Below are positions 3,237 to 42,469 of a stretch of 64,000 nucleotides of DNA, in pieces. A model generated the notes under the pieces. That model had not been told where the DNA came from, searched no databases, and was given only the letters and a program-made list of their open reading frames with translations. A program made the translations under genes and the position numbers. Location: NCBI GenBank assembly GCA_039815375.1, contig JBCBZJ010000002.1, forward strand, positions 1 to 64,000. The letters run 5' to 3'. Source of the stretch: Verrucomicrobiota bacterium (GTDB lineage: Bacteria; Verrucomicrobiota; Verrucomicrobiia; Opitutales; Coraliomargaritaceae). The stretch's first letter is position 1. The number at the start of each line of letters is the position of its first letter.

Positions 3237-3283
3237 TTTAATTTGCTAACGTGCTTGGAGAATCGTTCCAAAGTTTACGCCGA

Positions 3284-3420
3284 TCACCCATCCACGGTGA
3301 TTTCGACTCGGTTGAAATTGCGGTCGCTGACCAGATTGAATTCGAGGGTGACGAGCTCGTAGCGGCCCCGTCCCCGGGCGTATTGCATCGTGCTGGCGAG
3401 ACCTGTCTGGTGCGCGTGCG
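3284..3420 (-). pseudogene. Probable 3' remnant of a secreted-protein gene
   Basis: Frame ending at TGA 3284-3286 reads ...QTGLASTMQYARGRGRYELVTLEFNLVSDRNFNRVEITVDG* with GC-rich third positions; no plausible full gene; 5' boundary approximate. Confidence 0.35.
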
Positions 3421-21887: not shown

Positions 21888-21891
21888 TTTC

Positions 21892-22920
21892 ATGCAATTG
21901 CTCTCGCTATCTTCTGCTTTTCCCGAGCCTGTCTTTTCTCAGAGTGATTGCCTTGCTGCGCTTCAGGTTTCCCATTTCTGGAAAACTCTCTCCTCGCGCT
22001 CGCTCCGAATTCTCGATAAAGTCCTCAACGGTGATAATGGTATCGACCAGCGGCACTTTGCAGTCCGTTCTCTCGAAGAAGCGTGGAGTCGGGATACGCA
22101 GCAACTCAGTGAGTCTTTCGAGCGGGAAGCTCCGCAACTTGGGGCTCGGGCGGTGTCGCAGGCAATCGAACGTGCCGGTCTGCTTCCCAATCAAGTAGAT
22201 ATCCTTCTGGTTAGCACGTGCACCGGGAATCTCTGTCCTGGTTTATCGACCCATATCGGCGAGAAACTTGGACTGCGGCAGGACTGTGTGCTTCAGGATC
22301 TTACAGGCCACGGCTGTGGGGCAGCAGTTCCGCTGATTCATCTCGCAGCTGCTTATTCGAAACTCTATCCGCAGGCAAGAATCGTCACAGCAGAGGTCGA
22401 GGTTTGTTCGGCCGCTTTCTATCTTGACGACGATGTGGGTGTGTTGATCAGCGCTTGTTTGTTTGGTGATGGTGCATCCGCTCAAGTCTGGTCCGGCGAA
22501 GAAGGAAAGTGGAAGATCAGCGATTTCAATTCTGTTCAGCTGCCACAGCACCGCGAAGATCTCCGCTTTCTCAATCATAAGGGACGTCTAAAGAACCGAC
22601 TTCGGAAGACGGTGCCCTCCATTGTTTCGAAGTCGGTTGCCGGGCTTGTCGCACAGAAAGAGATCAAAGCTTTTGAACTGCCTGTTTTACATGGTGGCGG
22701 CCGAGATGTTTTGGATGCTCTCGAGCCTGTCTTTCCGGAGTATTCATTAGAAGTAAGTCGTCAGGTTTTACGCAAATATGGTAATCTAAGCAGCCCATCA
22801 CTTTTTATTGCGCTTGAGTCGATACTCACTTCGAGATCAAACGAGGATGCAACTTTCTGGTTGTGCGGCTTTGGGGCTGGTTTCTCTGCACACAGCGCGC
22901 GGTTGCGAACTTTTATTTAA
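21892..22920 (+). CDS. Type III polyketide synthase (chalcone/stilbene synthase family)
   Basis: Triad Cys (GHGCGAA), His (LHGGG), Asn (YGNLSS); LFGDGA; GFGAGFS. Confidence 0.92.
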   Translation: MQLLSLSSAFPEPVFSQSDCLAALQVSHFWKTLSSRSLRILDKVLNGDNGIDQRHFAVRSLEEAWSRDTQQLSESFEREAPQLGARAVSQAIERAGLLPNQVDILLVSTCTGNLCPGLSTHIGEKLGLRQDCVLQDLTGHGCGAAVPLIHLAAAYSKLYPQARIVTAEVEVCSAAFYLDDDVGVLISACLFGDGASAQVWSGEEGKWKISDFNSVQLPQHREDLRFLNHKGRLKNRLRKTVPSIVSKSVAGLVAQKEIKAFELPVLHGGGRDVLDALEPVFPEYSLEVSRQVLRKYGNLSSPSLFIALESILTSRSNEDATFWLCGFGAGFSAHSARLRTFI

Positions 22921-22988
22921 GTTTGCTGTCTGAAAAAAGCTCCCGTAACTGTTCTGCATAAATCAGTTTCAGCCGTCTGTTCAGAGTT

Positions 22989-24206
22989 GTGTACAAACAC
23001 CCCAAAGCATTATTAATAACAGGAATTTTTTCCGCATTCTTACTTAACGGGCTCCTCGCAGGAGACGATTGTCCTGATACAATTACCCCGGATCTAGGAC
23101 CGGAGGGTATGGTTTTCATCCCGAGCGGGACTTTTTCCATGGGCGGCGATCCAGGTTTGATGGGTGGCGGCTCGCAGTCGCACAATTCTTCCTATCCGAT
23201 TCACGAGGTTACATTAGACGCGTTCTGGATGGATGAGGCGGAAGTTACGAATCAACAGTTCGCTGATTTCGTCGAGGCAACCGGCTATGTCACTTTTGCT
23301 GAGCGACCGTTACCGGAGGCGTTTATCAACGAGGTAAAACGCATATCCAACGAGCGGATACGCCAAATGAAACTTGTTCTCTCACGGAGCAGCGGTTCTG
23401 AACGTGAAGCCATTGAGGAAGAGATCGCAAATATTGAGAAATCACTCGAATTCGGAGATTCTGCCGGATCTATCGTCTTTACTCCGCCGGAGGATCAAAT
23501 CTCCAGTAGATATGACTACACCCAATGGTGGCAGATCTTGCCGGGGGCGACATGGCGTTCACCCGAAGGGCCTGGCTCGACTTGGATAGGTCGTGAAGAC
23601 CACCCGGTGGTCAATGTGAATTCCGAAGACGCTGCCACCTATGCAAAGTGGGCTGGAAAGCGTTTGCCGACTGAAGCCGAGTGGGAACGGGCTGCACGTG
23701 GCGGATTGTCAAGAAAGCCCTATACTTGGGGCAAAGATTTTGCGCCGCTTGGAGAGGGCACCTGGATGGCAAATATCTGGCAGGGCGTCTGGCCTTATGA
23801 GAATACGGGTGAAGATGGTTTTGTCTTAACAGCGCCGGTTAAGGCTTTTCCGCCGAATGCCTTCGGGCTCTATGATATATCGGGTAATGTTTGGGAGATC
23901 GTGGCGGATCGCTATCACCCGCAGACTTATGCTCACAGGGCAGAAGAAGTTTCCATCAACCCTACTGGGCCCAGTGCGGCTTTGATCTCCGGTCGAGCGA
24001 TTGATCCCGAACGATTTGTGATTCGAGGGGGCTCATTCCTTTGTTCAGATAGCTGGTGCCGCGGCTACCAACCGGGTTCAAGGCAGGCGCAGGAATCCGA
24101 CTCGCCGGCCAATCACACGGGCTTCCGTTGCGCCCGGGATTATGAGGCTACAGAAATTAGCTTAAGCAGCACGTCGCAGACACCGAGTTTGAGAATTGAT
24201 GAATAG
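22989..24206 (+). CDS. Formylglycine-generating enzyme family protein (SUMF1/FGE)
   Basis: EVTN.QF..FV..TGYVT.AE, RLPTEAEWE.AARGG, GNVWE, RGGSFLCSDSWC..Y, GFRC. Confidence 0.9.
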   Translation: MYKHPKALLITGIFSAFLLNGLLAGDDCPDTITPDLGPEGMVFIPSGTFSMGGDPGLMGGGSQSHNSSYPIHEVTLDAFWMDEAEVTNQQFADFVEATGYVTFAERPLPEAFINEVKRISNERIRQMKLVLSRSSGSEREAIEEEIANIEKSLEFGDSAGSIVFTPPEDQISSRYDYTQWWQILPGATWRSPEGPGSTWIGREDHPVVNVNSEDAATYAKWAGKRLPTEAEWERAARGGLSRKPYTWGKDFAPLGEGTWMANIWQGVWPYENTGEDGFVLTAPVKAFPPNAFGLYDISGNVWEIVADRYHPQTYAHRAEEVSINPTGPSAALISGRAIDPERFVIRGGSFLCSDSWCRGYQPGSRQAQESDSPANHTGFRCARDYEATEISLSSTSQTPSLRIDE

Positions 24207-25467
24207 TTCTCAACCGTGCTCTTTTCAGCCGGTAGTCATCGTAGGGGCAGGAATGGCAGGGCTGTCCTGTGCACTTCACCTCCATAAGTCAGGATTTCCT
24301 GTTCGTTTATTCGAAGCCAGCGATGATGTGGGTGGTCGAGTTCGAACGGATGTGGTTGATGGTTTTCTTTTGGATCGAGGATTTCAGGTCTATTTGGATG
24401 CGTATCCGGAAACGAGTGAACTTTTAGATCTGAAAGCGCTCGAGTTGAGGGCTTTTGAGCCGGGTGCCCTGGTTTACAAGGATGGGAAACTGCATCGTTT
24501 GATGGACATCTTCAGGCGTCCTTCTTCGACGCTTTCAAGCGTATTGGCATCGGTTGGTTCATTGCTCGACAAGCTCCGGGTTGGACTGATGCGACGTCGC
24601 ATTCTACGGCGTTCCTTAAAAGAGATAGCCACAGGCTCTGATCAAACTACGGAGAGTTACCTTCGCAGTCTGGGCTTTTCAGAGGGTATGCTCGATAGCT
24701 TTTTCCGCTCCTTCTACGGTGGTATCTTTCTTGAGCGTGAGCTGCAGACATCAAGCCGGATGTTTGAGTTCACATTCAAGATGTTCGGTCTCGGAAGTGC
24801 AACTTTACCGGCAAAAGGCATGGGCGAGATACCCAGGCAAATTGCAGCACAGCTTCCGGGTGGAGTGGTTGAGCTGAATAAACCTGCGAGAGGTGTCTTT
24901 CGCGATGGACTTGAACTTGATGATGGCACCTGGGTCGATGCCAGTGCAGTCGTCGTTGCTACGAACGTGACTCAGGCTAAGGCGTTACTGCCTGAAAGCC
25001 AATTTGTTGAGCCTGGATGGCGCTCGGTTACAAATATCTATTTTGCTGCCGCCGAGTCACCCGTTAAGGAGCCGATAATTTGTCTCAATGGAAGTGGCAG
25101 TGGCCTCGTCAATAATGTCTGCGCACTGACAGATGCTGTTCCCGGTTATAGTCCGGACGGGCGTGCGCTCCTGTCGGTTTCGGTTCTTGGTGTCCATGAA
25201 GTGGACACTTTAATTGAAGCTGTGAAACAAGAGCTGAGTGATTGGTTTGGCGAAGCTGTTTTCTCCTGGCAGCACCTTCGCACAGATACGATTCGGCAAG
25301 CGCTACCCGATCAGCCTCCGGGGCAGGAGAGCCCTGGTTATTCGGAAGCCTCGGGAGTCTATATTTGTGGAGACCACTGCCTGAGCGCTTCCATTGAAGG
25401 TGCTGTCGTTTCAGGGAAGCGTGTAGCCTCAGCTGTCGTAAATGATATTTTGAGCAGCCATGTGTGA
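24199..25467 (+). CDS. FAD-dependent oxidoreductase (amine oxidase / phytoene dehydrogenase-like)
   Basis: IVGAGMAGL, EASDDVGGRVRTD..DGFLLDRGFQV, CGDH...SIEGA..SG. Confidence 0.85.
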   Translation: MNSSQPCSFQPVVIVGAGMAGLSCALHLHKSGFPVRLFEASDDVGGRVRTDVVDGFLLDRGFQVYLDAYPETSELLDLKALELRAFEPGALVYKDGKLHRLMDIFRRPSSTLSSVLASVGSLLDKLRVGLMRRRILRRSLKEIATGSDQTTESYLRSLGFSEGMLDSFFRSFYGGIFLERELQTSSRMFEFTFKMFGLGSATLPAKGMGEIPRQIAAQLPGGVVELNKPARGVFRDGLELDDGTWVDASAVVVATNVTQAKALLPESQFVEPGWRSVTNIYFAAAESPVKEPIICLNGSGSGLVNNVCALTDAVPGYSPDGRALLSVSVLGVHEVDTLIEAVKQELSDWFGEAVFSWQHLRTDTIRQALPDQPPGQESPGYSEASGVYICGDHCLSASIEGAVVSGKRVASAVVNDILSSHV

Positions 25468-27767: not shown

Positions 27768-27783
27768 TGGCATATCGCATGCT
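27768..27783 (+). promoter_or_regulatory. Putative sigma54 -24/-12 promoter
   Basis: TGGCATATCGCATGCT (GG-N10-GC); ATG begins 13 nt after the conserved C. Confidence 0.65.
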
Positions 27784-27794
27784 TCCTAGGTTGC

Positions 27795-28913
27795 ATGCTA
27801 TTTTTGAAAGGCTCTCAGGGCATCTATGGTCTGCTCCAAACTGCGGTCCTCTTTTTGCTTTTGTTGAGTCCGACGCTTGCGCAGGTGGAGAAGCGCAAGG
27901 TCATCATCGATGACGATTCCTTCAGTTTGATGCATCTCATGCTTCTCGGGGCTGAGGATGTCGAGGTGCTCGGTATTGCGTCTGTCACAGGCAACACTTG
28001 GTCGGAGCGTATCGTAGCCTATGTTCTGCGCGGCCTCGAGTTGACGGATAGAACTGATGTTCCAGTTGTTAAAGGCGCGACTTATCCGCTCCTTAATACA
28101 GAGGCTCAGACTGAAGTTTGGGAAAAGCTCTATGGTCGACTAACCTGGAAGGGGGTTTGGATGAAAGCCTGGGTCGAGCCCACGATCCAAAATCTGCCTG
28201 AATACTATGAAGTCGACGATCCCATTGAGATTCCATGGGGGAATCCTGAGGTGAAGCCGGACTCGAGAATCGCTGCTAACTTTTTGATCGAAATGGTGCG
28301 CGCGCATCCAGGCGAGATCACGATCATCTGTGGTGGTCCTCTCACGAATCTTGCGCTCGCACAACGGCTCGACCCTGAATTCGCCAGTCTTGCCAAAGAA
28401 CTCGTCTATATGGGTGCGAGTTTTAACCCACAGCAGGTCCTTGATAATCAGGTGGCCGCCGATTTTGCCCGCGAATTTGCTAATTCACCCCGGCGCGAGT
28501 TCAACATTAGGCTCGATCCTGAAGCGGCGAGTATTGTGTCCCGGAGTCCTTGGCCCAAGATCACTATTGTCCCAGTCGACCCTTCAACCGGCACCCAGCT
28601 TACGCCAGGGCTGCTCGCCCAAGCGACTGAGGCTGTTCCGGCTGAGATGGGGGAGGTTCTCGCCACTTGGGAGCCCGGCTTCCCCCTTTGGGACGAAATT
28701 GCGGCTGCGGTATGGCTCGAACCAGAACTTATCGTTGAGCAGGAGAAGCTCTATGTAGACTACAACACCCACTTCGGCCCCGGCTACGGGGACACGCTTT
28801 CCTGGCGGGAGCATTACCAGCCCGGTTTGGGCGAGCAGCCCGCAATGGTGATTCGAAAAATTGATCGGGCTCGCTTAGAAGCGCTTCTTTTGAAGCAACT
28901 GGGTAATCTTTAA
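27795..28913 (+). CDS. Nucleoside hydrolase (IU-NH family), exported
   Basis: KVIIDDD, VTGN, GGPLTNLALA, EFNIRLDPEAA, PLWDE; signal peptide ending PTLA|Q. Confidence 0.88.
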   Translation: MLFLKGSQGIYGLLQTAVLFLLLLSPTLAQVEKRKVIIDDDSFSLMHLMLLGAEDVEVLGIASVTGNTWSERIVAYVLRGLELTDRTDVPVVKGATYPLLNTEAQTEVWEKLYGRLTWKGVWMKAWVEPTIQNLPEYYEVDDPIEIPWGNPEVKPDSRIAANFLIEMVRAHPGEITIICGGPLTNLALAQRLDPEFASLAKELVYMGASFNPQQVLDNQVAADFAREFANSPRREFNIRLDPEAASIVSRSPWPKITIVPVDPSTGTQLTPGLLAQATEAVPAEMGEVLATWEPGFPLWDEIAAAVWLEPELIVEQEKLYVDYNTHFGPGYGDTLSWREHYQPGLGEQPAMVIRKIDRARLEALLLKQLGNL

Positions 28914-28926
28914 GCCACCGCTGAAT

Positions 28927-28942
28927 CGGTCTATTCTATGCT
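28927..28942 (+). promoter_or_regulatory. Putative sigma54 -24/-12 promoter
   Basis: CGGTCTATTCTATGCT (GG-N10-GC); ATG 14 nt after the C. Confidence 0.5.
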
Positions 28943-28954
28943 TCGCATGGATGC

Positions 28955-29917
28955 ATGCAAAAGATAACTCTGACACTCTCACTTTGTTTCACGGCGCTTC
29001 TATTATCTACAGTCCACACTCTTGCTAAGGAAGAAAAGATCTTTATCGCCGTCATTGGTGGCACCTCTTTCGGTGCACCTGAGAAATTTGGCCAGGGCCT
29101 CGTTGAAAACGAAGGCTACATTCAGATCGAGACGCCCGTTGGTCTCGGACCAAAGCTCTACAAGATGCGCTACAAAGGGGTCCCCTTCTACTATGTGCGC
29201 ATGTATGGCTACGAAACCAAGATTTCTGGCGAGAATGATGGTAATGTCCATGTCCGCACCTGGTATTCGCTTTACAAGGCCGGTGTGACACACGCCCTAG
29301 GTGGCGCGAGTTCGGGTGCGATCCGCACTGACTGGGATTACGATGACCTTGTTATCATCGATGACTTCATGATCATGGAGAATCAACGCCCTCAAAACAT
29401 TCTGGATTATGCCGGGATTGATCGGCCTGGGATTTTTCCCAACTTTGCCCATCCTTTCAGTCCGTCTTTGCGGAAGCTCTTGATCGATGAGGCCCGGAAG
29501 GCCCAGCCTGGCTATACTGGCAAGCTCTGGGAGCACGGTGTCTTCTTTCAAAACAATCCCGGACGTTTCGAGACCGCAGCCGAGATCCGTGCCATGCGTA
29601 TCCTCGGTGGTGAAATCACGAGCTTGAATGTTGGAACCTGCACGGAATATGCGCGCCAGCTCGGCATCCGCTGGGCCACGATCTGCTCGATCGCCAATCC
29701 GGCCGTAGGCGTTCGCCCATTCAGTTTCAAGGACATGCAGGGCAGTGTGCAACGTATCGCGGCTCAGGCCATTCCTATCGTGCTTGAGACTATAGCCCGC
29801 ATTCCCGAAGAAGCAATGAATCCCGAGCCAATCAGCACCGGCGAGGTCTTCACCGGGTCCTATACCGATCCGGATGCAGAGTCGTCCAACATTATTGACT
29901 CGGACCGTTCAGAATAG
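28955..29917 (+). CDS. MTAP/MTIP-family purine nucleoside phosphorylase, exported, divergent
   Basis: IAVIGGT, ETPVG, PF...LR..L, PGRFETAAEIR, IANPAVG; signal peptide. Confidence 0.8.
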   Translation: MQKITLTLSLCFTALLLSTVHTLAKEEKIFIAVIGGTSFGAPEKFGQGLVENEGYIQIETPVGLGPKLYKMRYKGVPFYYVRMYGYETKISGENDGNVHVRTWYSLYKAGVTHALGGASSGAIRTDWDYDDLVIIDDFMIMENQRPQNILDYAGIDRPGIFPNFAHPFSPSLRKLLIDEARKAQPGYTGKLWEHGVFFQNNPGRFETAAEIRAMRILGGEITSLNVGTCTEYARQLGIRWATICSIANPAVGVRPFSFKDMQGSVQRIAAQAIPIVLETIARIPEEAMNPEPISTGEVFTGSYTDPDAESSNIIDSDRSE

Positions 29918-29931
29918 GTTCTGGCTAAAGT

Positions 29932-30933
29932 CTAGTCACCAATCATCGCCAACAGGCAATCGATACAGGCATTCTTTTCCGGTGCATTCCAGAGGGCCAG
30001 CTCGAATCCATTGAGTGCGATCCGGGCCAATTCGCTTCGGGTAAAACCGAGGTCGGCAGCCAGTGCGTAGTATTCCTCCGAAAGTGTATTGCCGAACATT
30101 AGAGGGTCATCGGTATTGATCGTGCAACGAATGCCGGAATCGTGTAGCTGACGGATCGGATGGTCTCGCATTCTTGATATGCCTTCGACTTGGAGTTTGA
30201 GATTGCTGATCGGGCAAATATCGAGACCGATATTTCGATCCCGAAGCATGTCGACAACACGGGGGTCCTCGACAGACCGAACGCCATGCTGAATACGTTG
30301 CGCGCCTAACTCTTCGATGCACTTTTGAACGAAACTTGCCGGCATGAATTCGCCGGCATGAGCTTTTAGGAATTTCCCTGCAGCACCTGCTTTCGCCCAG
30401 ATATCGGCCGTCCACGGCTCTAGTGGTAGGTCCTCAGGCCCGTGCAGATCGATACCTGCTAAATTGGACCAATTCACACAGTCGTCGATAACCGGTTGTG
30501 TTACCTCATCGTAGCTATTGTGCCGCATGCCGGCAAAAACACGGACTTCGAGCTCGTCAGGCGCGGCATCAAGAATTGCGTCGATGACTTCGGGGCCGTG
30601 CATTCCTTTTTGGGTGAGGAGGCCAATATGGAAACTGCACTCGACGTAGCGAACATTCTGGGCGGCGCAGTTTGTGAATGCCACTTTTGCACATTCATGA
30701 AATATTTGAGGAGTCTTGAAGACTGTCGTGGCGACTTGGGCGAAGATTTCCGTAAAATGGGTAAAATTTTCGTATCGAAAATCATCGTCCCACATGTAGG
30801 GGACTTTGCCGAACAGCCCCGGCGCATAACGTTCGATGAGTTCCAGCGGGCAGGAGCCTTCGAGATGCAGGTGGGTTTCAGTTTTCGGGAGACTCTGGAC
30901 ATAGTCTGCCAGTTCATCACTTACCTCATACAT
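29932..30933 (-). CDS. add: Adenosine/adenine deaminase family
   Basis: LPKTETHLHLEG, AHAGE, RIQHGV, ICPISN, INTDDP. Confidence 0.88.
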   Translation of the reverse strand: MYEVSDELADYVQSLPKTETHLHLEGSCPLELIERYAPGLFGKVPYMWDDDFRYENFTHFTEIFAQVATTVFKTPQIFHECAKVAFTNCAAQNVRYVECSFHIGLLTQKGMHGPEVIDAILDAAPDELEVRVFAGMRHNSYDEVTQPVIDDCVNWSNLAGIDLHGPEDLPLEPWTADIWAKAGAAGKFLKAHAGEFMPASFVQKCIEELGAQRIQHGVRSVEDPRVVDMLRDRNIGLDICPISNLKLQVEGISRMRDHPIRQLHDSGIRCTINTDDPLMFGNTLSEEYYALAADLGFTRSELARIALNGFELALWNAPEKNACIDCLLAMIGD

Positions 30934-30938
30934 CGCAG

Positions 30939-31817
30939 TTATTCGTAAGCCTTGATAACCGCATGCGTGCCTTTGTCTTCCAGACCATCCTCTACAATCT
31001 GATCAAATTTTACTTTCGCCAGCTTCAAGCCCGGCACGTCGATGCCCATTGTCTCGGCGGAGTCGATCGCAATCTGCATGTCTTTGACAAAATGCTTCAC
31101 ATAGAATCCGGGCTCGAAATCTCCTCGCAGGACACGAGGAGCAAGATTCGCTAAGGTCCAGCTTCCGGCCGCTCCCTTGCTGATGCTGGCAAGAACGGTC
31201 TCTGGATCGAGCCCGGCTGCCTTTGCATAGGTCAGGCTTTCACACATGGCTAACATGGTGGAGGCGATGGCAATCTGGTTTGACATCTTGGTGTGCTGCC
31301 CACTTCCGGCAGGGCCTTGAAAAACGATGTTGCTACCCATCAGTTTCAAGAGGGGGAGAATGGTTTCAAATGCGCTTTGTTCGCCACCGACCATGATCGA
31401 TAATCGACCGCTCTTTGCTCCGACGTCGCCGCCTGAAACCGGTGCATCAAGCGAATGCACCCCTCTTACGCTTGCAGCTGCAGCAATGCGTTGCGCTAGT
31501 TCCGGCTTCGAAGTTGTCATGTCGACTATGATCGACCCAGGTTTTGCTTCGCTGACGATCCCCGGTTCCCCGAGAAAGACCGACTCTACGTCGGGCGGAA
31601 AACCTACGATTGCGAAGATCACATCGCATTGTGCCGCGACCTCTCCCGGGCTATAACAAAGCTTCGCACCTTCGTTGACCAGTGCTTCTGCCTTTGCCTC
31701 GGTGCGGTTGAAAACAAACAGCTTGTAGCCAGCGGTCATGAGATGCGCAGCCATGGGCGCTCCCATCACTCCAGTGCCAACAAAACCAATCTTGGTTGTT
31801 TTTGAATCTACAATCAT
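30939..31817 (-). CDS. NAD(P)-dependent beta-hydroxyacid dehydrogenase (3-hydroxyisobutyrate DH / tartronate semialdehyde reductase family)
   Basis: IGFVGTGVMG, LDAPVSGGDVGA, GQHTKMSNQ, FVKDM; ATG 31817 follows the Rieske stop. Confidence 0.9.
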   Translation of the reverse strand: MIVDSKTTKIGFVGTGVMGAPMAAHLMTAGYKLFVFNRTEAKAEALVNEGAKLCYSPGEVAAQCDVIFAIVGFPPDVESVFLGEPGIVSEAKPGSIIVDMTTSKPELAQRIAAAASVRGVHSLDAPVSGGDVGAKSGRLSIMVGGEQSAFETILPLLKLMGSNIVFQGPAGSGQHTKMSNQIAIASTMLAMCESLTYAKAAGLDPETVLASISKGAAGSWTLANLAPRVLRGDFEPGFYVKHFVKDMQIAIDSAETMGIDVPGLKLAKVKFDQIVEDGLEDKGTHAVIKAYE

Positions 31818-31819
31818 TT

Positions 31820-32866
31820 TTAGGAAGTAAAGCTCTTGCCGAGACCGATCTTTTTCAACCAACGGCGAAAGGCAATCGACGCTTTGTCTGCCTTTGCATG
31901 AATCTCAAGGGACACTTCTAGCGGGATTTCCTCGGGCTTCTGCTTCTCTATCATGGCTCGATCCTCTCCCAGGATTTTACGTTCCCAGGCCAGCAGTTCT
32001 TCCACAGGCACGTCTTTGTCGAAATTTCGAGTGAAGACGACGATCAATTGCGAACGCCTGGCCGAGACTGGCGTGATGTTAATATGGATGATATGCTCGC
32101 GGCCACCCGGGTATCCGATGGATGTGCGTGTGCAGAAAGGAAGAAAGAGCGTGCGGTGCATGTGCCGTTGGAGCTGGTTCGTGTCTTCAATCGGCGAGTC
32201 ATCCGGATTGTGCGCTAAATAGTCGAACTCCATCGTCATCTCGTAATCGTTCTCGCTGAACGCATATTCCGCGCCTTGAGTCGCGCTCGATTCTTGCCCG
32301 AATGTGTTGCGATGTACGTAGGAGAAGTGTGCGTTGTCGATAAAGTTCTCGATCGCTCGACCGGCTGAGCAATCCCAAAGCTCGGGTCCCATCGTGAAGC
32401 GCAGGTAGTCCGGGTTGCCTGCTTCGGGTTCCCACGTGGGTAAACGGTTTTTGGGCTCGCCACTGAGACAGACCCAAATGAGTCCATACTTCACTTCATG
32501 CAGGTAGGTCTCCAGCCGGATACGTGAAGGTATTTTCCAGTTTGGATCGCTCGGGACTTTGCTACAACGGCCATCAGCTTCGTATTCGTATCCGTGATAC
32601 GGGCAGACAATACAACTGCCCTTGATCCAACCCGCTGTCATCGGGGCTCCACGATGCACACAGAGGTCCTTGGCGACGATGTAGCGATCGCCCAGTCTTG
32701 CGACGACCAGGTTTACATCAAGCAACTGCTTTGTGATCGGTTCATCCGAGATTTCCTCCTCCAGCGCAACCGGATGCCATTGGCCAGCAAGCGCCAACCA
32801 ATCCGATTCCGAGAAGGTGCATTCTTTCGGATATCTTGCGGTAGCGAGTGCCAGCGAGGACAACAT
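31820..32866 (-). CDS. Rieske non-heme iron oxygenase alpha subunit, VanA / methylxanthine N-demethylase (NdmA/B)-like
   Basis: CVHRG...CPYHG Rieske ligands; ENFIDNAHFSYVH iron motif; ED..IEKQKPEEIPL...EIH..ADK.SIAFRR C-terminus. Confidence 0.88.
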   Translation of the reverse strand: MLSSLALATARYPKECTFSESDWLALAGQWHPVALEEEISDEPITKQLLDVNLVVARLGDRYIVAKDLCVHRGAPMTAGWIKGSCIVCPYHGYEYEADGRCSKVPSDPNWKIPSRIRLETYLHEVKYGLIWVCLSGEPKNRLPTWEPEAGNPDYLRFTMGPELWDCSAGRAIENFIDNAHFSYVHRNTFGQESSATQGAEYAFSENDYEMTMEFDYLAHNPDDSPIEDTNQLQRHMHRTLFLPFCTRTSIGYPGGREHIIHINITPVSARRSQLIVVFTRNFDKDVPVEELLAWERKILGEDRAMIEKQKPEEIPLEVSLEIHAKADKASIAFRRWLKKIGLGKSFTS

Positions 32867-32877
32867 GGGTTGTTGAG

Positions 32878-32893
32878 AGCAATGTCTGTTCCA
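32878..32893 (-). promoter_or_regulatory. Putative sigma54 promoter for the Rieske-dehydrogenase-deaminase operon
   Basis: Minus strand TGGAACAGACATTGCT; ATG (32866) 13 nt after the C. Confidence 0.7.
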
Positions 32894-32909
32894 GATTTTC
32901 TCTTCAAAG

Positions 32910-32925
32910 TGGCACGTATGCGGCT
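32910..32925 (+). promoter_or_regulatory. Putative sigma54 promoter for the symporter
   Basis: TGGCACGTATGCGGCT (perfect -24, weak -12); ATG (32936) 12 nt after the C. Confidence 0.6.
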
Positions 32926-32935
32926 CAACAGCCTT

Positions 32936-34369
32936 ATGTCCGCATATGTCATCTGGGCTGGGTTGTTTTTGGCCCTCTATATTCTCTGGTTGGTTTCGCT
33001 GACCTTCAGATCCTGGGTGAGCAAGCCAGGGAGTTTGCGCGACTATTTCCTGGCGGGAAATGATGTGGGTTTTATTCCTTCTGTTCTAACCTTTTGGGCC
33101 ACTTATTTTAGCGCGGCCGCTCTGATTGGTGCCTCAGGCTATTACTATATCCACGGGATCGGTAACTTCTACTTTGCTTCGCTCGGATACTTCATACTTG
33201 CTGGTATCACCGGCACCGTGGGCGTGCGCCTGTTTCGCCTTTCTCGAGCGTATCCTGAGATTCGGTCACCTATTCAGCTTTATCTCCGGTCTTTCCGGTC
33301 GCCTGCGCTTGAGATGCTCTTTCTCGTCGTGACGTTGCTTTGCCTAGTGCCTTACATGGCGGCACAAATCACCGGGTTTGCTTGGTTAATCGAAAGTGCG
33401 ATTGGCCTGCCTTACCTTTGGACGGCGGCGGGAGCACTCGTGATAATCTTCCTCTATTCGGAATCAGGTGGTTTGAAGAATATCGTTCGCACCGACGTGG
33501 TCCAATCGTTGATGACGATTGTGGGCTGCATCGGGCTTATGGTGGCCTTTCTCTGGATTTACTGGGACTTTGATTTCGGCCGATTTCTCGAAGATGTGGA
33601 TGCGCTTCATGAACCTTCGCTTTTGGGACTTCCGGGGCCGAGGAATTTTTATACGCCCATCATCATCGTGAGTCTTGCCGTTTTGATCTCTGCAGGTGCA
33701 GTGCCGATGGCCCACAACGCACAGCGCTATATGATCGTTCGGGAGCTCAAGTATTTGAAGCGCCTGGTCTGGATGTTTCCTTTCATGGGTATCTTTGTGA
33801 CCTTTGTGGCGATGGTTCTCGGCTTGGGTGGGGCAGTGCAATTTCCGGGCCTCGAAACCGGAGACCAGGTAATTGGCAAGGTGACCGCCGCGGTTCCGGC
33901 TGTGATTGGGGCTCTGGCAACGATTGGTATTGTTGCGTCCACCATGTCGACAGCCGATTCGATTCTTCTAAGTGTTGGATTCATCGTGAGTGAGCAAAAG
34001 TATCGCGATCGTGCTCAGCAGGACGCTAAAAGCGTCCGTTCCTTAAACCGATGGTGCACGGGTGCAGTTGCGATCTTTTCGTTTGCCGCAAGTATTCAGC
34101 CGGGATTAGTGACAGAGTTTGCTTTCAACGCCTTCGGGGGCATGCTTCAGCTCGCTCCGGTCATGTTTGCCGGGGTTTACGAGCTTAGGATCTCGAGGCA
34201 ATGGGCTTTTGGCAGTAGCTTGCTTGGGCTGGGCATAGTTATTCTAGGTAACACACCGATTTACGGTCAGTTGCCAATTGCACCTGTCCCGCATTACTTT
34301 ACCGGATTTGTTCTGGCGACCGTGGTTCTACTGGTCGGCTGGGTTAGGGGGCGAACACAGCCCGTCTGA
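32936..34369 (+). CDS. Sodium:solute symporter (SSS) family
   Basis: DYFLAG, ATYFSA, GGLKNIVRTDVVQ, STMSTADS; about 13 TM segments. The 32594 start overlaps the Rieske gene and is rejected. Confidence 0.9.
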   Translation: MSAYVIWAGLFLALYILWLVSLTFRSWVSKPGSLRDYFLAGNDVGFIPSVLTFWATYFSAAALIGASGYYYIHGIGNFYFASLGYFILAGITGTVGVRLFRLSRAYPEIRSPIQLYLRSFRSPALEMLFLVVTLLCLVPYMAAQITGFAWLIESAIGLPYLWTAAGALVIIFLYSESGGLKNIVRTDVVQSLMTIVGCIGLMVAFLWIYWDFDFGRFLEDVDALHEPSLLGLPGPRNFYTPIIIVSLAVLISAGAVPMAHNAQRYMIVRELKYLKRLVWMFPFMGIFVTFVAMVLGLGGAVQFPGLETGDQVIGKVTAAVPAVIGALATIGIVASTMSTADSILLSVGFIVSEQKYRDRAQQDAKSVRSLNRWCTGAVAIFSFAASIQPGLVTEFAFNAFGGMLQLAPVMFAGVYELRISRQWAFGSSLLGLGIVILGNTPIYGQLPIAPVPHYFTGFVLATVVLLVGWVRGRTQPV

Positions 34370-34412
34370 TTGGAGCTGCTCAATAGCTAGAAGAGTTCAT
34401 CGATAGATTGAA

Positions 34413-34428
34413 TGGAATATGATATGCT
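34413..34428 (+). promoter_or_regulatory. Putative sigma54 promoter
   Basis: TGGAATATGATATGCT; ATG (34439) 12 nt after the C. Confidence 0.65.
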
Positions 34429-34438
34429 GTTGGAACCT

Positions 34439-34906
34439 ATGTTCAAAATAATCAAGCGAGTTATAACTCTCAACCTTCTTGGCTTTTCGGCAGTGCTCAT
34501 AGGCACTGGCTGTGCGACTCGAACGGTTGATCCCGTAGTCGACATTCGCGCGTCAGCGGAGGCGAACCAGTGGATGGAAACCTCGCTCTACTTCGGGCTA
34601 CGTCGTGTTGGTGGAAATGCGCCCTTTAAAGGTATTACCGAAGAGCGATGGGTTCAGTTTCTCGACGAAGAAGTTTCTCCGCGTTTTCCAGCCGGGTTCA
34701 CTGTGGTCGATGGATACGGTCAATGGATTCATATGGAGAATCCTGACAAGACGCCAAACCGTCTGGTCTCTAAGGTGATTATTCTGCTTCACCCTTCGAC
34801 GGAGGAATACCGGGCCAGAATCGAAGAAGTGCGGGATGTTTTTAAGGAGCAGTTTGGCCAGGAGTCCGTCCTTCGCGTTACTTTGGCTGCAGAAGTGTCC
34901 TTCTAA
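34439..34906 (+). CDS. DUF3574 family lipoprotein
   Basis: Lipobox-like IGTGC; LYFG, W..FLDEEVSPRFP.GFTV.DGYGQW, F.QESVLRV. Confidence 0.85.
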   Translation: MFKIIKRVITLNLLGFSAVLIGTGCATRTVDPVVDIRASAEANQWMETSLYFGLRRVGGNAPFKGITEERWVQFLDEEVSPRFPAGFTVVDGYGQWIHMENPDKTPNRLVSKVIILLHPSTEEYRARIEEVRDVFKEQFGQESVLRVTLAAEVSF

Positions 34907-35013
34907 GAGAGAACATTCCATGAAGGCCACCAAGTGTTTACGGTGTGCATCCTTCGTGTTTCTCGAAGGTAAGTCACGGTGTAAGCTGCTTCTTTTTCGG
35001 GCGATATCTATCT

Positions 35014-35538
35014 ATGCATTTATCTACCGTATACTTCCGTCGTTTTTTTATCTTTCTTTTCTCGCTGCACCTCGCGGCATTTGCATTTGGAGCAGGCTCA
35101 CCTTCGAAAAAGTCTACAGTGAGTGCGGCGGATCGTGAAAAAGAGGCAATCGAGCTCTACAACTCTGGAACTCAACTCCTTTTCGAGTCGAATTACGAGG
35201 CTGCTGAAAAAGCGCTAAAAAAAGCACTGAAGAAGAATAAGAAACTAGCCGAGGCTCACAACAACCTTGCTTTTGCTCTTCGCAAACAGGGAGCCAAGCA
35301 ATTCAAGCAAGCTTTGAAGCACTACAACACCGCTATCGAAATTGATTCCGAGATTGCCGAGGCGCGAATGTATCGAGGTGTTCTTTATGTCGCGATGGGT
35401 GAGGAAGCGCTTGCGAAAAATGATTTGAAGTGGCTCCAGTCGAACTCGCAAAAATTGGCAGTGGAGCTCGAGTGGGTGATTGAAAACGGCAAGGAAAAAG
35501 AGCCCGCTCAGTTCTTTGGTGTGTCGCAAAGAATCTAA
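35014..35538 (+). CDS. Tetratricopeptide repeat protein, exported
   Basis: AEAHNNLAFALRK...ALKHY..AI.ID...AEA.MYRG; signal peptide. Confidence 0.85.
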   Translation: MHLSTVYFRRFFIFLFSLHLAAFAFGAGSPSKKSTVSAADREKEAIELYNSGTQLLFESNYEAAEKALKKALKKNKKLAEAHNNLAFALRKQGAKQFKQALKHYNTAIEIDSEIAEARMYRGVLYVAMGEEALAKNDLKWLQSNSQKLAVELEWVIENGKEKEPAQFFGVSQRI

Positions 35539-35670
35539 GCGGATGTAACGCTTTCCGGTGATGGTAAGAAGTTGATCAGGGTGTCCTTGGTATTTCTCCT
35601 TACTCGTGTCTCCTTTGGTCTAAGGATTCCTGCAGCCTTAAGTCAGACCATAGGGAAGTGATCATATATA

Positions 35671-36228
35671 ATGGTGTTACGTCATCTCGCGATTCTTGTT
35701 TTGTTTCTCTGGTCCGCTGTCGCCGAGCAAATGATGAAACCACTTTTCCAGTTTACGGGCGATGCTCCAGCGAAGCCGTGGCATGCTACGAACGATGATG
35801 TGATGGGCGGGCTGTCGAGGGGCGAAGCAAAGCTCGTTGAGGATGGCATGCTCTTCAGCGGTGTCCTCTCTCTCGAAAATAATGGTGGTTTTTCCTCGGT
35901 CTATGCAGGTGGCCTTTTCGATCTTTCAGATTACACAGGTCTACGCTTTAGCGTCATGGGCGACGGCCGAACCTACGAGCTGCGGCTCAACAGTGATGCG
36001 ATGTTCCGCTCACGCAGCCCCGTTTCTTTTCGTCAAACCTTTGATACGATAGATGGTGAATGGATCGAAGTGTTTATACCCTTCAATGAGCTCAAGCAAA
36101 GTTGGCGTGGTCGCCAGCTCTCAGGTTACATTTTCAATCCCGAGAAGATCAGCCGCATCGGCTTCATGCTGACCGACAAGAAGCCCGGTGAATTCGCGCT
36201 TAGGGTCCGTTGGTTGGGTGCAGAGTAA
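35671..36228 (+). CDS. CIA30 family protein
   Basis: W...NDDVMGGLS, F.G.LSLENNGGFSS, GDGRTY. Confidence 0.9.
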   Translation: MVLRHLAILVLFLWSAVAEQMMKPLFQFTGDAPAKPWHATNDDVMGGLSRGEAKLVEDGMLFSGVLSLENNGGFSSVYAGGLFDLSDYTGLRFSVMGDGRTYELRLNSDAMFRSRSPVSFRQTFDTIDGEWIEVFIPFNELKQSWRGRQLSGYIFNPEKISRIGFMLTDKKPGEFALRVRWLGAE

Positions 36229-36274
36229 AAGAGAGTGTTTAATTGCTTCAAAAGCGACTGATTGAGTCCTATTC

Positions 36275-36290
36275 TGGTTCAATTCCTGCA
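36275..36290 (+). promoter_or_regulatory. Putative sigma54 promoter
   Basis: TGGTTCAATTCCTGCA; ATG (36302) 13 nt after the C. Confidence 0.55.
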
Positions 36291-36301
36291 TGATACCCGG
36301 T

Positions 36302-37345
36302 ATGTGCCGGATACTGGTCTTTTTTCTCTCGCTGTCATTCGTGCCGCTCTTCGGAGTTGAGCTGCATGAGGGATCTCTCAAAGGTGCTCCCTACCGTGTG
36401 GCGGTTCCGGAAAAATGGGAGACGGGTAAAGTATTCTTTCATGTCCATGGCTGGCGACCGGATGACGCCCTCCATCAGGCGGACCTCGACTTGAAAGATC
36501 CTTTTTACCAGAGTCTTTTGAAGCAGGGTTGGATTATCGGACGCACAGCATTTTTAAAGAACGGGGTCGATCACGACGCACACACAGTTGCACTGCGGGA
36601 CCTGAAATCGTGGATTGAGGAAAAGTTCGGCCCAATTAAGATGCTTATTCTGGAGGGCGAATCGACCGCTGGAACCCTTGTGCTTCGGATTGCTGAGCAG
36701 GATGTAGATCTCGCGGACGGTGTCATAGCGATGGGTGCCTACATCGACCTGAATGACCCGAGCGTGGATTCTTATCTTTCGGCTACACCTATGTTGCCTT
36801 CGATTTTGATGAGTAACATGACCGAGATCGCAGATCCACTAAAGTATGCAGTCAAAGCCGAGAGCGCTGTAATTCAGCCTTCTTTATGGCCTTTACTGCG
36901 GCCTGGACATGTCAATGTGAACTGGGTCGAACGGAAGGAAGCTTTAACGATGATGGTGCAAGCTATCGAGACTGGTGTGCCTTTGCCGCTTTTGACCGAT
37001 GGCACGCGTGCGGTGCCAACACGTGATACGGGAACATCGAAGGAGGACGGTGCAATCGTAAATGTTGTTACGGCAATCAATCCGTTTTACGGTAACGCCT
37101 TCCTGGGATTTCATCCGGACGAGCTTCTCTCTGCTGGACTGGTAAAAGGTAAGTCTTTTGAGATCGAGATTGCCGGGAATAGCTGGCCCGTTCTCTTTGG
37201 TGATTCCTATGGCGACGTGCCTCTGGGTGAGTGGGTCGCATTTCCGACTGCCGACGAGTTTATTCTTCTTGTCCGGAATCACAAAAGTGCGGTTGAGACA
37301 GCCGGACTCGAAGTGGGAGACCAGGTCCGTATCAGCTTGGAATAG
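36302..37345 (+). CDS. Exported alpha/beta-hydrolase-like domain fused to SAM hydroxide adenosyltransferase (DUF62/fluorinase) C-terminal domain
   Basis: HVHGW, LEGESTAG elbow, GH; C-terminal I.PFYGNA...SYGDVPLGE.VA......L.RN..SA....GLEVGDQV.I. Confidence 0.7.
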   Translation: MCRILVFFLSLSFVPLFGVELHEGSLKGAPYRVAVPEKWETGKVFFHVHGWRPDDALHQADLDLKDPFYQSLLKQGWIIGRTAFLKNGVDHDAHTVALRDLKSWIEEKFGPIKMLILEGESTAGTLVLRIAEQDVDLADGVIAMGAYIDLNDPSVDSYLSATPMLPSILMSNMTEIADPLKYAVKAESAVIQPSLWPLLRPGHVNVNWVERKEALTMMVQAIETGVPLPLLTDGTRAVPTRDTGTSKEDGAIVNVVTAINPFYGNAFLGFHPDELLSAGLVKGKSFEIEIAGNSWPVLFGDSYGDVPLGEWVAFPTADEFILLVRNHKSAVETAGLEVGDQVRISLE

Positions 37346-40307: not shown

Positions 40308-40841
40308 TCAAGGTTTTTGCTCAGGGTGATGGAGTAAGAAGCGGTATTCCACTTTTGACCAATAGGGCCCGGCGTAATCGATTCCAATACGGGGTGTTCG
40401 GGTGATGTCTTCTGCGCTCGAAATGAAGTTCTCATTCGGCTCGATCCAGAGGCCATTTTCCTGGCCGAGACGCAGGCTATTGAAGCGACCATCGATGCCG
40501 AGGCCACGGGTTAGCTTTCCTGGGCCGTCATAGTGTCCGGCACCTCTAATAAGAACCGCAGCAGGGTAGCCCTCGGCTCCGGTGACGATATTCAGAAGCC
40601 AGTGTATTCCGTAGCAGAGATAAACGTAGTTGCAGCCTCCGCGCTGAAACATCACTTCGGTGCGCTTTGTTCGACGATTCATATGGGCATGACAAGCTCC
40701 GTCCTCGGGGCCGTCGTAAGCTTCTGTTTCGTTGATCATCAACCGCTGAATTTCGCCCGCTGAATTTCGCAGGCAAAGAAACTGGCCGATTAAGTTCTCA
40801 GCGATGGAAATAGTATCAGAACTCTCGAAATCGATTATCAT
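40308..40841 (-). CDS. mpg: DNA-3-methyladenine glycosylase (MPG/AAG family)
   Basis: ETEAYDG.ED.ACH, YVYLCYGIHWLLNIV, AVLIR, GPGKL, TPRIGI. Confidence 0.93.
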   Translation of the reverse strand: MIIDFESSDTISIAENLIGQFLCLRNSAGEIQRLMINETEAYDGPEDGACHAHMNRRTKRTEVMFQRGGCNYVYLCYGIHWLLNIVTGAEGYPAAVLIRGAGHYDGPGKLTRGLGIDGRFNSLRLGQENGLWIEPNENFISSAEDITRTPRIGIDYAGPYWSKVEYRFLLHHPEQKP

Positions 40842-42320: not shown

Positions 42321-42469
42321 ACGGAGCCAACTTAGAAATCTATCTTAAATGGTTTTTAGTTTTTGGTTTGTTTCACGCCTCCTTTAGAGATTGAAACCAG
42401 TATCTTCCTGTCGCAAAGGCTTTTGAATTGAGTTGATTGTAGGTTTTGGTAAACTTGCAGTTAGGTTTT

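Follow-up and report, generated by a model that had tools for sequence, protein, structure and literature searches.

A block of genes at positions 27768-37345 of a 64,000-nucleotide stretch of DNA from a verrucomicrobial genome of the family Coraliomargaritaceae, order Opitutales (positions 1 to 64,000 of contig JBCBZJ010000002.1, assembly GCA_039815375.1; hereafter, the window), contains a conserved core of four genes, which encode a sodium:solute symporter of the SSS type, a Rieske oxygenase, a beta-hydroxyacid dehydrogenase, and an enzyme of the adenosine deaminase (ADA) family. This core recurs, in full or in part, at about 40 loci, and the oxygenase at its center carries a pocket signature of its own. 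We assign this protein to the purine-oxidizing branch of Rieske oxygenases that includes HpxD, NdmA/B, and SxtT, rather than to the aromatic O-demethylases, and its sequence places it as neither an HpxD nor an Ndm but as a distinct specificity class within the same branch. We consider it probable that the core converts an imported purine base.

Gene content and arrangement of the block

The genes of the block are given below with their Pfam matches; signal peptides and the lipobox were judged by eye. A first-pass annotation of this DNA, made by a model from the letters alone, had named eight of them, and the Pfam searches find all eight in place; the TPR and CIA30 genes had gone unmentioned.

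27795-28913, plus strand: secreted protein of the IU-nucleoside-hydrolase family (IU_nuc_hydro, 170.9 bits)
28955-29917, plus strand: secreted protein of the PNP/MTAP fold (PNP_UDP_1, 43.7 bits)
29932-30933, minus strand: ADA-family (cog1816-type) metal hydrolase/deaminase (A_deaminase, 189.9 bits)
30939-31817, minus strand: beta-hydroxyacid dehydrogenase of the HIBADH/TSR family (NAD_binding_2 and NAD_binding_11)
31820-32866, minus strand: Rieske [2Fe-2S] non-haem-iron oxygenase, clade A, Glu295 type (Rieske and VanA_C)
32936 (or 32919)-34369, plus strand: SSS sodium:solute symporter (SSF, 77 bits)
34412-34906, plus strand: DUF3574 lipoprotein (Pfam match; lipobox-like ...GTGC)
34945-35538, plus strand: TPR protein (Pfam match)
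35671-36228, plus strand: CIA30-domain protein (Pfam match)
36290-37345, plus strand: secreted fusion of an alpha/beta-hydrolase with SAM_HAT_C (31.2 bits, residues 267-347)

The three minus-strand genes have the spacing of an operon, with 2 nt between the stop codon of the Rieske gene and the ATG of the dehydrogenase gene and 5 nt between the dehydrogenase stop codon and the ATG of the ADA-family gene, while the symporter gene is divergent from the Rieske gene across an intergenic gap of 52-69 nt. As originally listed, the symporter open reading frame (ORF) begins at 32594, overlaps the Rieske gene in antisense (32594-32935), and appears to exceed the gene by about 110 codons, as no stop codon interrupts the strand opposite the Rieske gene; since homology begins near residue 110-115, we place the true start at 32919 or 32936. 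A long antisense frame also covers the Rieske gene in several orthologous loci, where it gives rise to spurious tblastn hits. A search of the window for riboswitches and other RNA elements returned no Rfam family at the gathering score.

Conservation of the four-gene core

Two sets of loci were used to examine which neighbors travel with the oxygenase. The genome set comprises 21 loci of the Rieske clade to which the window protein belongs, clade A (L010 and L012-L031; 56-81% identity), from which the distant hits L032 and L033 were left out, and in which 15 window proteins served as tblastn queries (E <= 1e-8). The metagenome scan yielded 80 loci, with 21 in clade A (at least 58% identity) and the other 59 at 35-40% identity. 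Because some contigs are duplicated (L131 = L024), the two sets are not fully independent.

The most constant companion of the oxygenase is the symporter, which divergently adjoins the Rieske gene in 15 of the 21 genome loci (two others are cut by contig ends and four are without a symporter), with orthologues of 51-78% identity in this position, and which is present in all 16 assessable metagenome loci (5/21 being too short upstream). The dehydrogenase gene lies 3' of the Rieske gene in 6/21 genome loci and in 6/17 assessable metagenome loci, with truncated remnants in two more, and an ADA-family gene adjoins the Rieske gene equally often (6/21 and 6/17, respectively). In the two loci with remnants, L123 (6359-6571) and L124 (2066-2278), only dehydrogenase residues 8-78 persist between the Rieske and ADA-family genes, and the gene is apparently decaying. 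The relative nearest to the window, with 82% identity, is at L119, where the symporter, Rieske, dehydrogenase, and ADA-family genes stand in the same order as in the window and the flanks differ. None of the 21 genome loci contains the nucleoside hydrolase, the MTAP-like protein, DUF3574, the TPR or CIA30 proteins, or the genes downstream of the block at the search threshold, and the esterase-SAM_HAT_C gene is found at one (L018). From the recurrence of the core and the absence of the flanking genes, we therefore conclude that the conserved unit is the four-gene core, in which the dehydrogenase and ADA-family genes are frequent but optional. Where the first-pass annotation had drawn the eight genes into one pathway, the symporter, the oxygenase, and the dehydrogenase/ADA pair hold together, whereas the secreted genes and DUF3574 (0-1 of 21 loci) do not. 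DUF3574, for which a functional context had been hoped, gains none, and the DUF3574, TPR, and CIA30 proteins are bystanders rather than parts of the system.

The Rieske gene is accessory, being present in none of 8 other genomes of the genus and in 2 of 24 other genomes of the family, and in a sample of 120 other genomes from across the order, 3 have a member of clade A (at least 59% identity). The closest loci are labeled Puniceicoccaceae, Coraliomargarita, or Opitutales, and matching DNA is found in marine metagenome runs. The cultured species Coraliomargarita parva encodes an orthologue of the Rieske protein with 74-75% identity. At the DNA level, sequences within the genus are too divergent for synteny to define the borders of an insertion.

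Some genes around the block appear to be unrelated to the module. Upstream (20781-25467), the window encodes FAD-binding, type III polyketide-synthase-like, FGE-sulfatase-domain, and flavin amine oxidase proteins. A methylpurine-DNA glycosylase gene and an SNase/HhH gene (40308-40841 and 42446-43603) lie 3-5 kb downstream; the glycosylase, which unlike the SNase gene served as a query, turned up at none of the 21 genome loci, so that its proximity is probably due to chance.

Placement of the oxygenase within the purine-oxidizing branch

Among annotated proteins, the closest homologue of the window oxygenase is HpxD, with 37-38.6% identity over 96% of the length (E = 3e-72, to annotated plasmid proteins). 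Among solved structures, it is NdmA (157 bits, 6.5e-45, full length), followed by SxtDIOX/SxtT and then NdmB (117.5 bits), all of which act on purines or purine-like rings. The aromatic O-demethylase DdmC matches over the Rieske domain only. The resemblance to NdmA/B noted at first reading is thus real, with HpxD being closer still, and the structural match, the annotated homologues, and the tree agree in setting the protein apart from the aromatic O-demethylases.

Trees were inferred by maximum likelihood with a quick search, with branch supports given by the Shimodaira-Hasegawa-like approximate likelihood ratio test (SH-aLRT) only. As references, we used annotated Klebsiella and Acinetobacter records for HpxD and the orthologues from a Paraburkholderia caffeinilytica plasmid (L094; 649 and 689 bits to solved NdmA and NdmB, respectively) for the demethylases. 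In a 70-row tree, clade A is a group of 35 Opitutales rows with 100% SH-aLRT support and a stem of 1.06, which is placed beside a group of HpxD, Firmicute, and cyanobacterial sequences and falls outside the clade that holds HpxD. NdmA/B are far from clade A, with branches of 3.7-4.5 changes per site and an identity of about 30%. When an 80-row tree is rooted on Ndm, HpxD takes a derived position and clade A is part of a basal grade with weak resolution; likewise, clade A and a second Opitutales clade described below, clade B, form a poorly supported basal grade and are not resolved as a single clade. Because the window protein does not group with NdmA/B, N-demethylation is only one of two chemistries open to it, the other being hydroxylation of a ring carbon.

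A Glu295-type pocket

The Rieske ligands (C69, H71, C88, and H91) and the iron site (H180, H185, and D302) are invariant. The residues of NdmA that contact caffeine are F168, F174, F223, L248, N282, V285, and F286 (10.1101/2021.12.17.472166). These map to F175, F181, M236, I260, E295, I298, and L299 of the window protein, with two of the seven identical, namely the purine-stacking Phe168 and Phe174 of NdmA, which are kept as F175 and F181.

For comparison with HpxD, we defined a signature of 13 pocket positions in this analysis. In query numbering, the HpxD group reads G174, V178, Y214, S216, V218, W234, R236, F238, L258, F294, N295, V298, and F299, and it is uniform at these positions across Proteobacteria, Firmicutes, and cyanobacteria. 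Clade A is identical to this signature at none of the 13 positions and has an invariant set of its own (N, N, F, Y, A, R, M, R, H, W, E, I, and L/I in the same order), which we read as pointing to a different substrate or regiochemistry. Position 295 is Glu in clade A, Asn in HpxD and NdmA (Asn282), and Gln in NdmB (Gln289). In purine nucleoside phosphorylases, a switch between Asn and Asp sets the recognition of amino versus oxo groups, and by analogy we take Glu295 as a hint that an amino group, and not an oxo group, is recognized.

The ADA-family enzyme and a second Glu295-type clade

The ADA-family protein of the window scores 193.5 bits against TIGR01430 (cut-off of 216.55), has 3ou8 as its best match in the PDB, and contains the motifs HLH (residues 21-23), HAGE (192), QHG (215), and TDD (274). 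In the ADA tree, the Rieske-adjacent proteins form one clade (96% support) that includes two MatE-adjacent paralogues, and the window protein is far from Escherichia coli Add (branches of 2.2 and 1.9). A deaminase of the ADA family is described as taking N6-methyl-, N6,N6-dimethyl-, and cytokinin-type adenines and not adenine or adenosine (PMC13296781). The cytokinin deaminase Patl2390, which acts on N6-substituted adenines, is a cog1816 deaminase, and the window protein shares the Pfam family and catalytic motifs of this group; any substrate assigned to it is a prediction.

The association of a Glu295-type oxygenase with an ADA-family gene is seen in a second Rieske clade. Clade B, from other Opitutales (L107, L108, and L109), is at 42-43% identity, is also of the Glu295 type, and keeps N174, F175, F181, Y216, A218, R234, M236, H258, W294, E295, I298, and L299. 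In all three of its loci, the oxygenase gene adjoins an ADA-family gene with 50-54% identity to that of the window. Beside the clade B Rieske gene in two of the three loci, and between the Rieske and ADA-family genes in G018, is a gene for a multi-pass membrane protein of about 530 residues, which has no Pfam match at E <= 1e-3. Compared with xanthine/uracil permeases, this protein gives an Atlas value of 0.89 with 172-174 shared features, and the profile comparison is weak (E = 8e-4, probability of 24%); it is a probable permease. Members of its family are found at L010 1448-3034, L044 8870-10504, L107 7034-8755 and 11021-12691, L108 8066-9640, and on G000:C10 and C40 of the window's own genome. 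The family adjoins ADA-Rieske pairs and an MTAP-like gene, and it may represent a new family of nucleobase carriers. Rieske paralogues with Gln295 or with HpxD-like signatures keep other company, having an NMT1-type binding protein, SnoaL, a TonB receptor, or HpxE as neighbors.

The genome from which the window comes (G000; 3.56 Mb, 99.9% complete, with the window on contig C37) contains five ADA-family genes, on C37, C40, C50, C63, and C27. Four of these belong to an Opitutales-specific radiation far from E. coli Add, and the fifth, on C27, is long, probably secreted, and part of a xanthine dehydrogenase cluster. On C63 (L053 3601-11046), an ADA paralogue with 42% identity to that of the window is followed by a cytochrome P450. 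Divergently from this pair run genes for an ABC importer with an NMT1/THI5-type binding protein, for DUF1152, and for an aldo-keto reductase, and G008 (L044) has the same importer set beside an ADA-family gene. The pair on C63 looks like a second unit of an oxygenase with an ADA-family enzyme.

The dehydrogenase and the supply of electrons

The first-pass annotation had linked the dehydrogenase to tartronate semialdehyde formed from purine-derived glyoxylate, and this link is not supported. The protein scores 256.1 bits against TIGR01505 (cut-off of 340.75) and is closer to 3w6u (244 bits, its best PDB match), which we take to be an L-serine 3-dehydrogenase, than to the tartronate semialdehyde reductase 1vpd (202 bits). 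The best candidate for a glyoxylate carboligase in G000 reaches 257.8 bits (cut-off of 711.2), and because no carboligase reaches the cut-off, a connection to glyoxylate is without support. The dehydrogenase is the only member of its family found in G000 by tblastn and carries the sequence GSGQHTK, presumably its characteristic lysine motif. Being so tightly coupled to the Rieske gene, it may instead process an alcohol or aldehyde product of the oxygenase, a role for which the dehydrogenases acting after the Rieske enzyme TsaM are reportedly a precedent.

Folate genes at two loci were considered as signs of one-carbon metabolism and rejected. At L015, the gene with the Formyl_trans_N match is to all appearance a purN with a frameshift, and an MTHFR/DUF971 pair in L014 is a housekeeping pair that is also found together elsewhere in G000.

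The clade A oxygenases are without an adjacent reductase. In the 59 HpxD-like metagenome loci, a homologue of HpxE lies 12-83 nt from the Rieske gene in 15; no clade A Rieske gene has one alongside, either in the 21 genome loci or in the 21 metagenome loci.

Purine catabolism in the carrier genomes

A route by which a purine base could be degraded for nitrogen is encoded in the same genome. Contig C27 of G000 carries genes for a nucleoside hydrolase, an Ade-type adenine deaminase, NUP, the long ADA-family protein, a xanthine/uracil permease, XdhC/A/B, a membrane urate oxidase, a class-V aminotransferase, and an allantoinase-like amidohydrolase, and C40 carries genes for HIUase and OHCU decarboxylase. 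In G142 (Candidatus Pelagisphaera) and G143, the core itself is found inside a single purine supercluster of about 35 kb, together with XdhA/B, urate oxidase, HIUase, OHCU decarboxylase, an M20 amidohydrolase, an allantoinase-like enzyme, an Ade-type adenine deaminase, a xanthine/uracil permease, Vut_1, and a CDA-fold deaminase. The purine theme proposed at first reading is borne out by this co-location and by the C27 pathway, as well as by the kinship of the oxygenase and by the co-conservation of the transporter and ADA-family genes.

We had considered whether the oxygenase substitutes for a missing xanthine dehydrogenase. This idea was discarded, as G000 has both XdhC/A/B and urate oxidase, and xanthine dehydrogenase-type genes are present in all five of the Rieske-bearing genomes tested (co-clustered with the module in two). 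Because all five carriers have such genes, the oxygenase adds to xanthine dehydrogenase rather than replacing it, and most likely feeds it.

The secreted proteins that flank the core

The nucleoside hydrolase, the MTAP-like protein, and the fusion protein have N-termini that resemble signal peptides by eye, in agreement with the signal peptides that had been noted for the first two. Although secreted genes of these types recur with one another and with ADA-family genes, the proposed tie between extracellular nucleoside cleavage and the core does not extend further, as they are absent beside the core in the 21 genome loci, except for the fusion gene at one.

The best NCBIfam model for the MTAP-like protein is MTAP, at 76.6 bits (cut-off of 274.85). 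The base-contacting residue is Asp in MTAP and Asn in PNP and MTIP; in this protein, all 11 aligned sequences have Asn248, which belongs to an NPA motif that corresponds to VNPAAG in 3ozb, and this may point to a PNP/MTIP-like preference for 6-oxopurine nucleosides. R60 and H61 of human MTAP, which we take to be the phosphate-binding Arg-His dyad, align to M83 and Y84, with an Arg one position earlier, and because the dyad aligns to Met-Tyr, phosphorolysis by the MTAP-like protein is uncertain. Orthologues (at least 49% identity) occur in 9 of the 120 other genomes of the order in varied contexts, and 4 of 11 loci adjoin genes for NUP, an ADA-family protein, a nucleoside hydrolase, or a full S-adenosylmethionine (SAM) hydroxide adenosyltransferase.

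The canonical IU-nucleoside hydrolases have the N-terminal calcium-binding and catalytic motif DxDxxxDD. In the window hydrolase, the N-terminal Asp cluster is IIDDDSFSLMH (residues 37-47), and together with its orthologue in G100 (L116 8057-9175) it has the form IIDDD(S/G)FS(L/M)MH, whereas two other hydrolases of the order keep D.D...DD. The window protein may therefore represent a non-canonical subfamily in which catalytic competence or metal binding differs. Its close orthologue (79% identity), found in 1 of the 120 other genomes of the order (G100), adjoins two esterase-SAM_HAT_C genes; G100 holds orthologues of the hydrolase, MTAP-like, Rieske, symporter, and ADA-family genes, on three different contigs. 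A C-terminal fragment of the hydrolase (3003-3302) lies beside the module in L123.

The description of the last gene of the block as a hydrolase-SAM_HAT_C fusion holds at the level of fold. The AlphaFold model (predicted local distance difference test score, pLDDT, of 82) matches alpha/beta esterases (6z68 and 6sxp) over its N-terminal part and DUF62/fluorinase/chlorinase chains (2zbu, 5b6i, and 7ccg) over its C-terminal part in Foldseek, and the sequence has GESTAG at 123, the nucleophile elbow, and a conserved GHVN at 206. Members of this family occur at L046 8351-9541, L044 11490-12578 and 13409-14461, L116 5708-6799 and 6893-7966, and L018 6429-7508; they are often tandem pairs, and one paralogue has Thr in place of the nucleophile Ser. 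On C40 of G000, an ADA paralogue is followed by an esterase-SAM_HAT_C paralogue. In G008, a genome without the Rieske gene, an MTAP-like orthologue lies 3-5 kb from two esterase-SAM_HAT_C genes, in a cluster that also contains NUP, Vut_1, a CDA-fold deaminase, and an ADA-family gene. The hydrolase, the MTAP-like protein, and the fusion protein thus appear to make up a recurrent extracellular set of their own, with loose ties to the core, that would release bases from nucleosides or adenosyl compounds outside the cell and that presumably flanks the core here by chance.

Proposed pathway and alternatives

We propose the following sequence of steps for the core. The symporter would use sodium to import a modified adenine-type (6-amino) base that is not taken directly by adenine deaminase or xanthine dehydrogenase. 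The Rieske monooxygenase would then hydroxylate an N-linked alkyl group, which would be lost as an aldehyde, as in NdmA/B, and the beta-hydroxyacid dehydrogenase, where present, would dispose of the aldehyde or semialdehyde. Finally, the ADA-family enzyme would hydrolyze the 6-amino group, and the resulting product at the level of hypoxanthine would enter the xanthine dehydrogenase/urate oxidase/allantoin route for nitrogen. The parts of this chain differ in how far we would rely on them. That the imported base is an aminopurine, as the analogy at position 295 and the coupling to an ADA-family gene would predict, falls just short of an even chance. N-dealkylation is favored over ring hydroxylation mainly because the dehydrogenase gene is tightly coupled to the Rieske gene, and it is a tentative choice that we place distinctly below even. 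The chain as a whole, from import through N-dealkylation and deamination to the xanthine dehydrogenase route, with its transported molecule and order of steps likewise predicted, is one that we would rate as possible and somewhat less than an even proposition.

Several observations weigh against this pathway. Aminopurine specificity draws on one residue analogy and on gene adjacency, and the substrate is a prediction. Clade A lies closer to a ring hydroxylase, HpxD, than to NdmA/B, which are N-demethylases, and no FrmA or FghA gene, for formaldehyde and S-formylglutathione, was found near any of 25 loci or in G000. Nor does G000 contain a homologue of HpxE or NdmD (tblastn E <= 1e-3), and the only NAD_binding_1 genes found there are three diflavin reductases, in a search that excluded ferredoxin reductases of the glutathione-reductase type. 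As for the makeup of the core, the four genome loci without a symporter belong to a subclade at 59-60% identity, G077 has a symporter orthologue with no Rieske gene beside it, and neither the ADA-family gene nor the dehydrogenase gene is obligatory, since each is present in about a third of the loci and the latter has decayed in two. To our knowledge, SSS transporters have not been described as nucleobase carriers, and the best NCBIfam model for the symporter is PanF, at 95 bits, far below the cut-off. Neighboring genes were called by a simple longest-ORF routine, and many of the contigs are short.

The closest alternative keeps the same module and replaces N-dealkylation with hydroxylation of a ring carbon (C2 or C8) of an aminopurine, followed by deamination by the ADA-family enzyme (isoguanine to xanthine, or 8-oxoadenine to 6,8-dihydroxypurine). 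It draws on the 38% identity to HpxD as the closest annotated relative, on the position of clade A beside the HpxD group in the tree, and on the lack of genes for one-carbon handling nearby, and the amino reading of Glu295 would suit it as well. However, it leaves the Rieske-coupled dehydrogenase without a role, and the adenine deaminases and xanthine dehydrogenases in the same clusters would already handle plain adenine. Parsimony does not fix the chemistry, because the Glu295 lineages form a basal grade when the tree is rooted on Ndm. We consider this alternative unlikely. As for N-demethylation as first proposed, the oxygenase does fall in the purine-oxidizing branch, but it does not group with NdmA/B, and no formaldehyde genes were found near the 25 loci.

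That the oxygenase is simply an isofunctional HpxD, a molybdenum-independent hydroxylase of hypoxanthine and xanthine that backs up xanthine dehydrogenase, is improbable. HpxD is the best annotated match, the genomic context is one of purine catabolism, and naming of the PGAP type would probably transfer the name; yet the protein lies outside the HpxD clade, differs at 13 of 13 signature positions, is next to HpxE at none of the clade A loci in either set, and comes from genomes that, in all five cases tested, have xanthine dehydrogenase genes, which in two cases are clustered with the module.

Equally improbable is the full scheme of the first-pass annotation, in which all eight genes, DUF3574 included, formed one pathway for N-methylated nucleosides from RNA turnover: these would be cleaved outside the cytoplasm, their bases imported, demethylated by an Ndm-like enzyme, and deaminated, with the dehydrogenase acting on products of purine-derived glyoxylate. 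Its gene content is confirmed, NdmA is indeed the best match among solved structures, and the secreted genes recur with ADA-family genes and with one another, with a hydrolase remnant in L123 and orthologues spread over three contigs of G100. Against this, the hydrolase, the MTAP-like protein, and DUF3574 are found at none of the genome loci, the locus of the closest relative has the core with other flanks, NdmA/B are distant, and neither a carboligase at the cut-off nor nearby formaldehyde genes could be found.

A chance juxtaposition, in which the symporter imports something other than a purine (an N-methylated osmolyte or an aromatic acid, for example) and the oxygenase acts on that solute, is very improbable: the nearest curated model of the symporter is a pantothenate symporter and no purine gene lies beside the pair in L020, L021, L023, L129, L130, or L133, but ADA-family genes adjoin the oxygenase in two separate Rieske clades, the module sits within purine superclusters, its other neighbors include NUP, Vut_1, a CDA-fold deaminase, and a xanthine/uracil permease, and all characterized relatives act on purine-type rings.

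Comparison with known purine systems

We know of only two characterized Rieske systems for purines, HpxDE and NdmABCDE. With HpxDE, which is known from Klebsiella and also annotated in Pantoea, Erwinia, and Acinetobacter, the window protein shares the Rieske and VanA_C architecture and the metal ligands, and the HpxDE purine clusters, with a permease, uraH, and uraD, bring to mind the superclusters of G142 and G143. It differs from HpxDE in its separate clade, in its pocket signature, in the absence of HpxE, both adjacent and elsewhere in the searched genome, in its coupling to an SSS symporter, an ADA-family enzyme, and a beta-hydroxyacid dehydrogenase, and in its coexistence with xanthine dehydrogenase. 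In Klebsiella, HpxDE converts hypoxanthine to xanthine and xanthine to urate (PMC7373994).

NdmA/NdmB of Pseudomonas putida CBB5, which work with NdmD, resemble the window protein in the stacking Phe residues and in a polar residue at position 295. Unlike the ndm cluster (L094), the module has no gene for NdmD, NdmC, NdmE, or a formaldehyde dehydrogenase nearby, and the likely substrate of the window enzyme is predicted to be an aminopurine rather than xanthine. On a P. putida plasmid (L093 8980-18689), an HpxD-like gene adjoins hpxO, and at a distance of a few kb there are GST, NdmC-like, and split NdmD-like genes; purine hydroxylation and demethylation thus seem to be combined in one cluster on a conjugative plasmid.

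The gene sets of the xanthine (NMT1-motif) riboswitch offer a third comparison. They bring together NMT1/THI5-like binding proteins, nucleoside transporters, deaminases, and uncharacterized oxygenases of the Rieske and 2-oxoglutarate types for purine degradation, and in Proteobacteria NMT1-type binding proteins belong to purine-degradation gene sets (PMC7373994). In the genomes studied here, NMT1-type binding proteins similarly adjoin Rieske and ADA paralogues; these proteobacterial sets differ from the module of the window, which is without a riboswitch, in phylum, in the SSS transporter, and in the clade of the oxygenase. Within the literature searched (supplements lay outside the search), no paper describes the module in Verrucomicrobiota.

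Implications for purine use in marine Opitutales

Proteins of clade A are at present annotated as vanillate demethylase or ring-hydroxylating dioxygenase, and they could easily be mislabeled as HpxD. A more far-reaching proposal, which we regard as doubtful at this stage, is that Rieske oxygenases with Glu295 and no reductase make up an enzyme class not known before, which would define an undescribed branch of purine catabolism, in which adenine-type bases beyond the reach of deaminases and xanthine dehydrogenase are dealkylated at nitrogen or hydroxylated with a dedicated ADA-family enzyme and importer in two marine clades of Opitutales. Much nitrogen circulates in the sea in the form of purines, and few bacterial sinks are known for the modified purines that come from RNA, DNA repair, and algal or sponge metabolites. 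Clade A offers a third specificity among the purine Rieske oxygenases, with the invariant Glu, the company of a transporter, the frequent ADA-family gene, and the lack of a cognate reductase as handles for its study. The substrate, once found, would give a function to an uncharacterized SSS subfamily, would partly explain the expansion of the ADA family to five genes in a genome of 3.56 Mb, and would refine the automatic annotation of these proteins.

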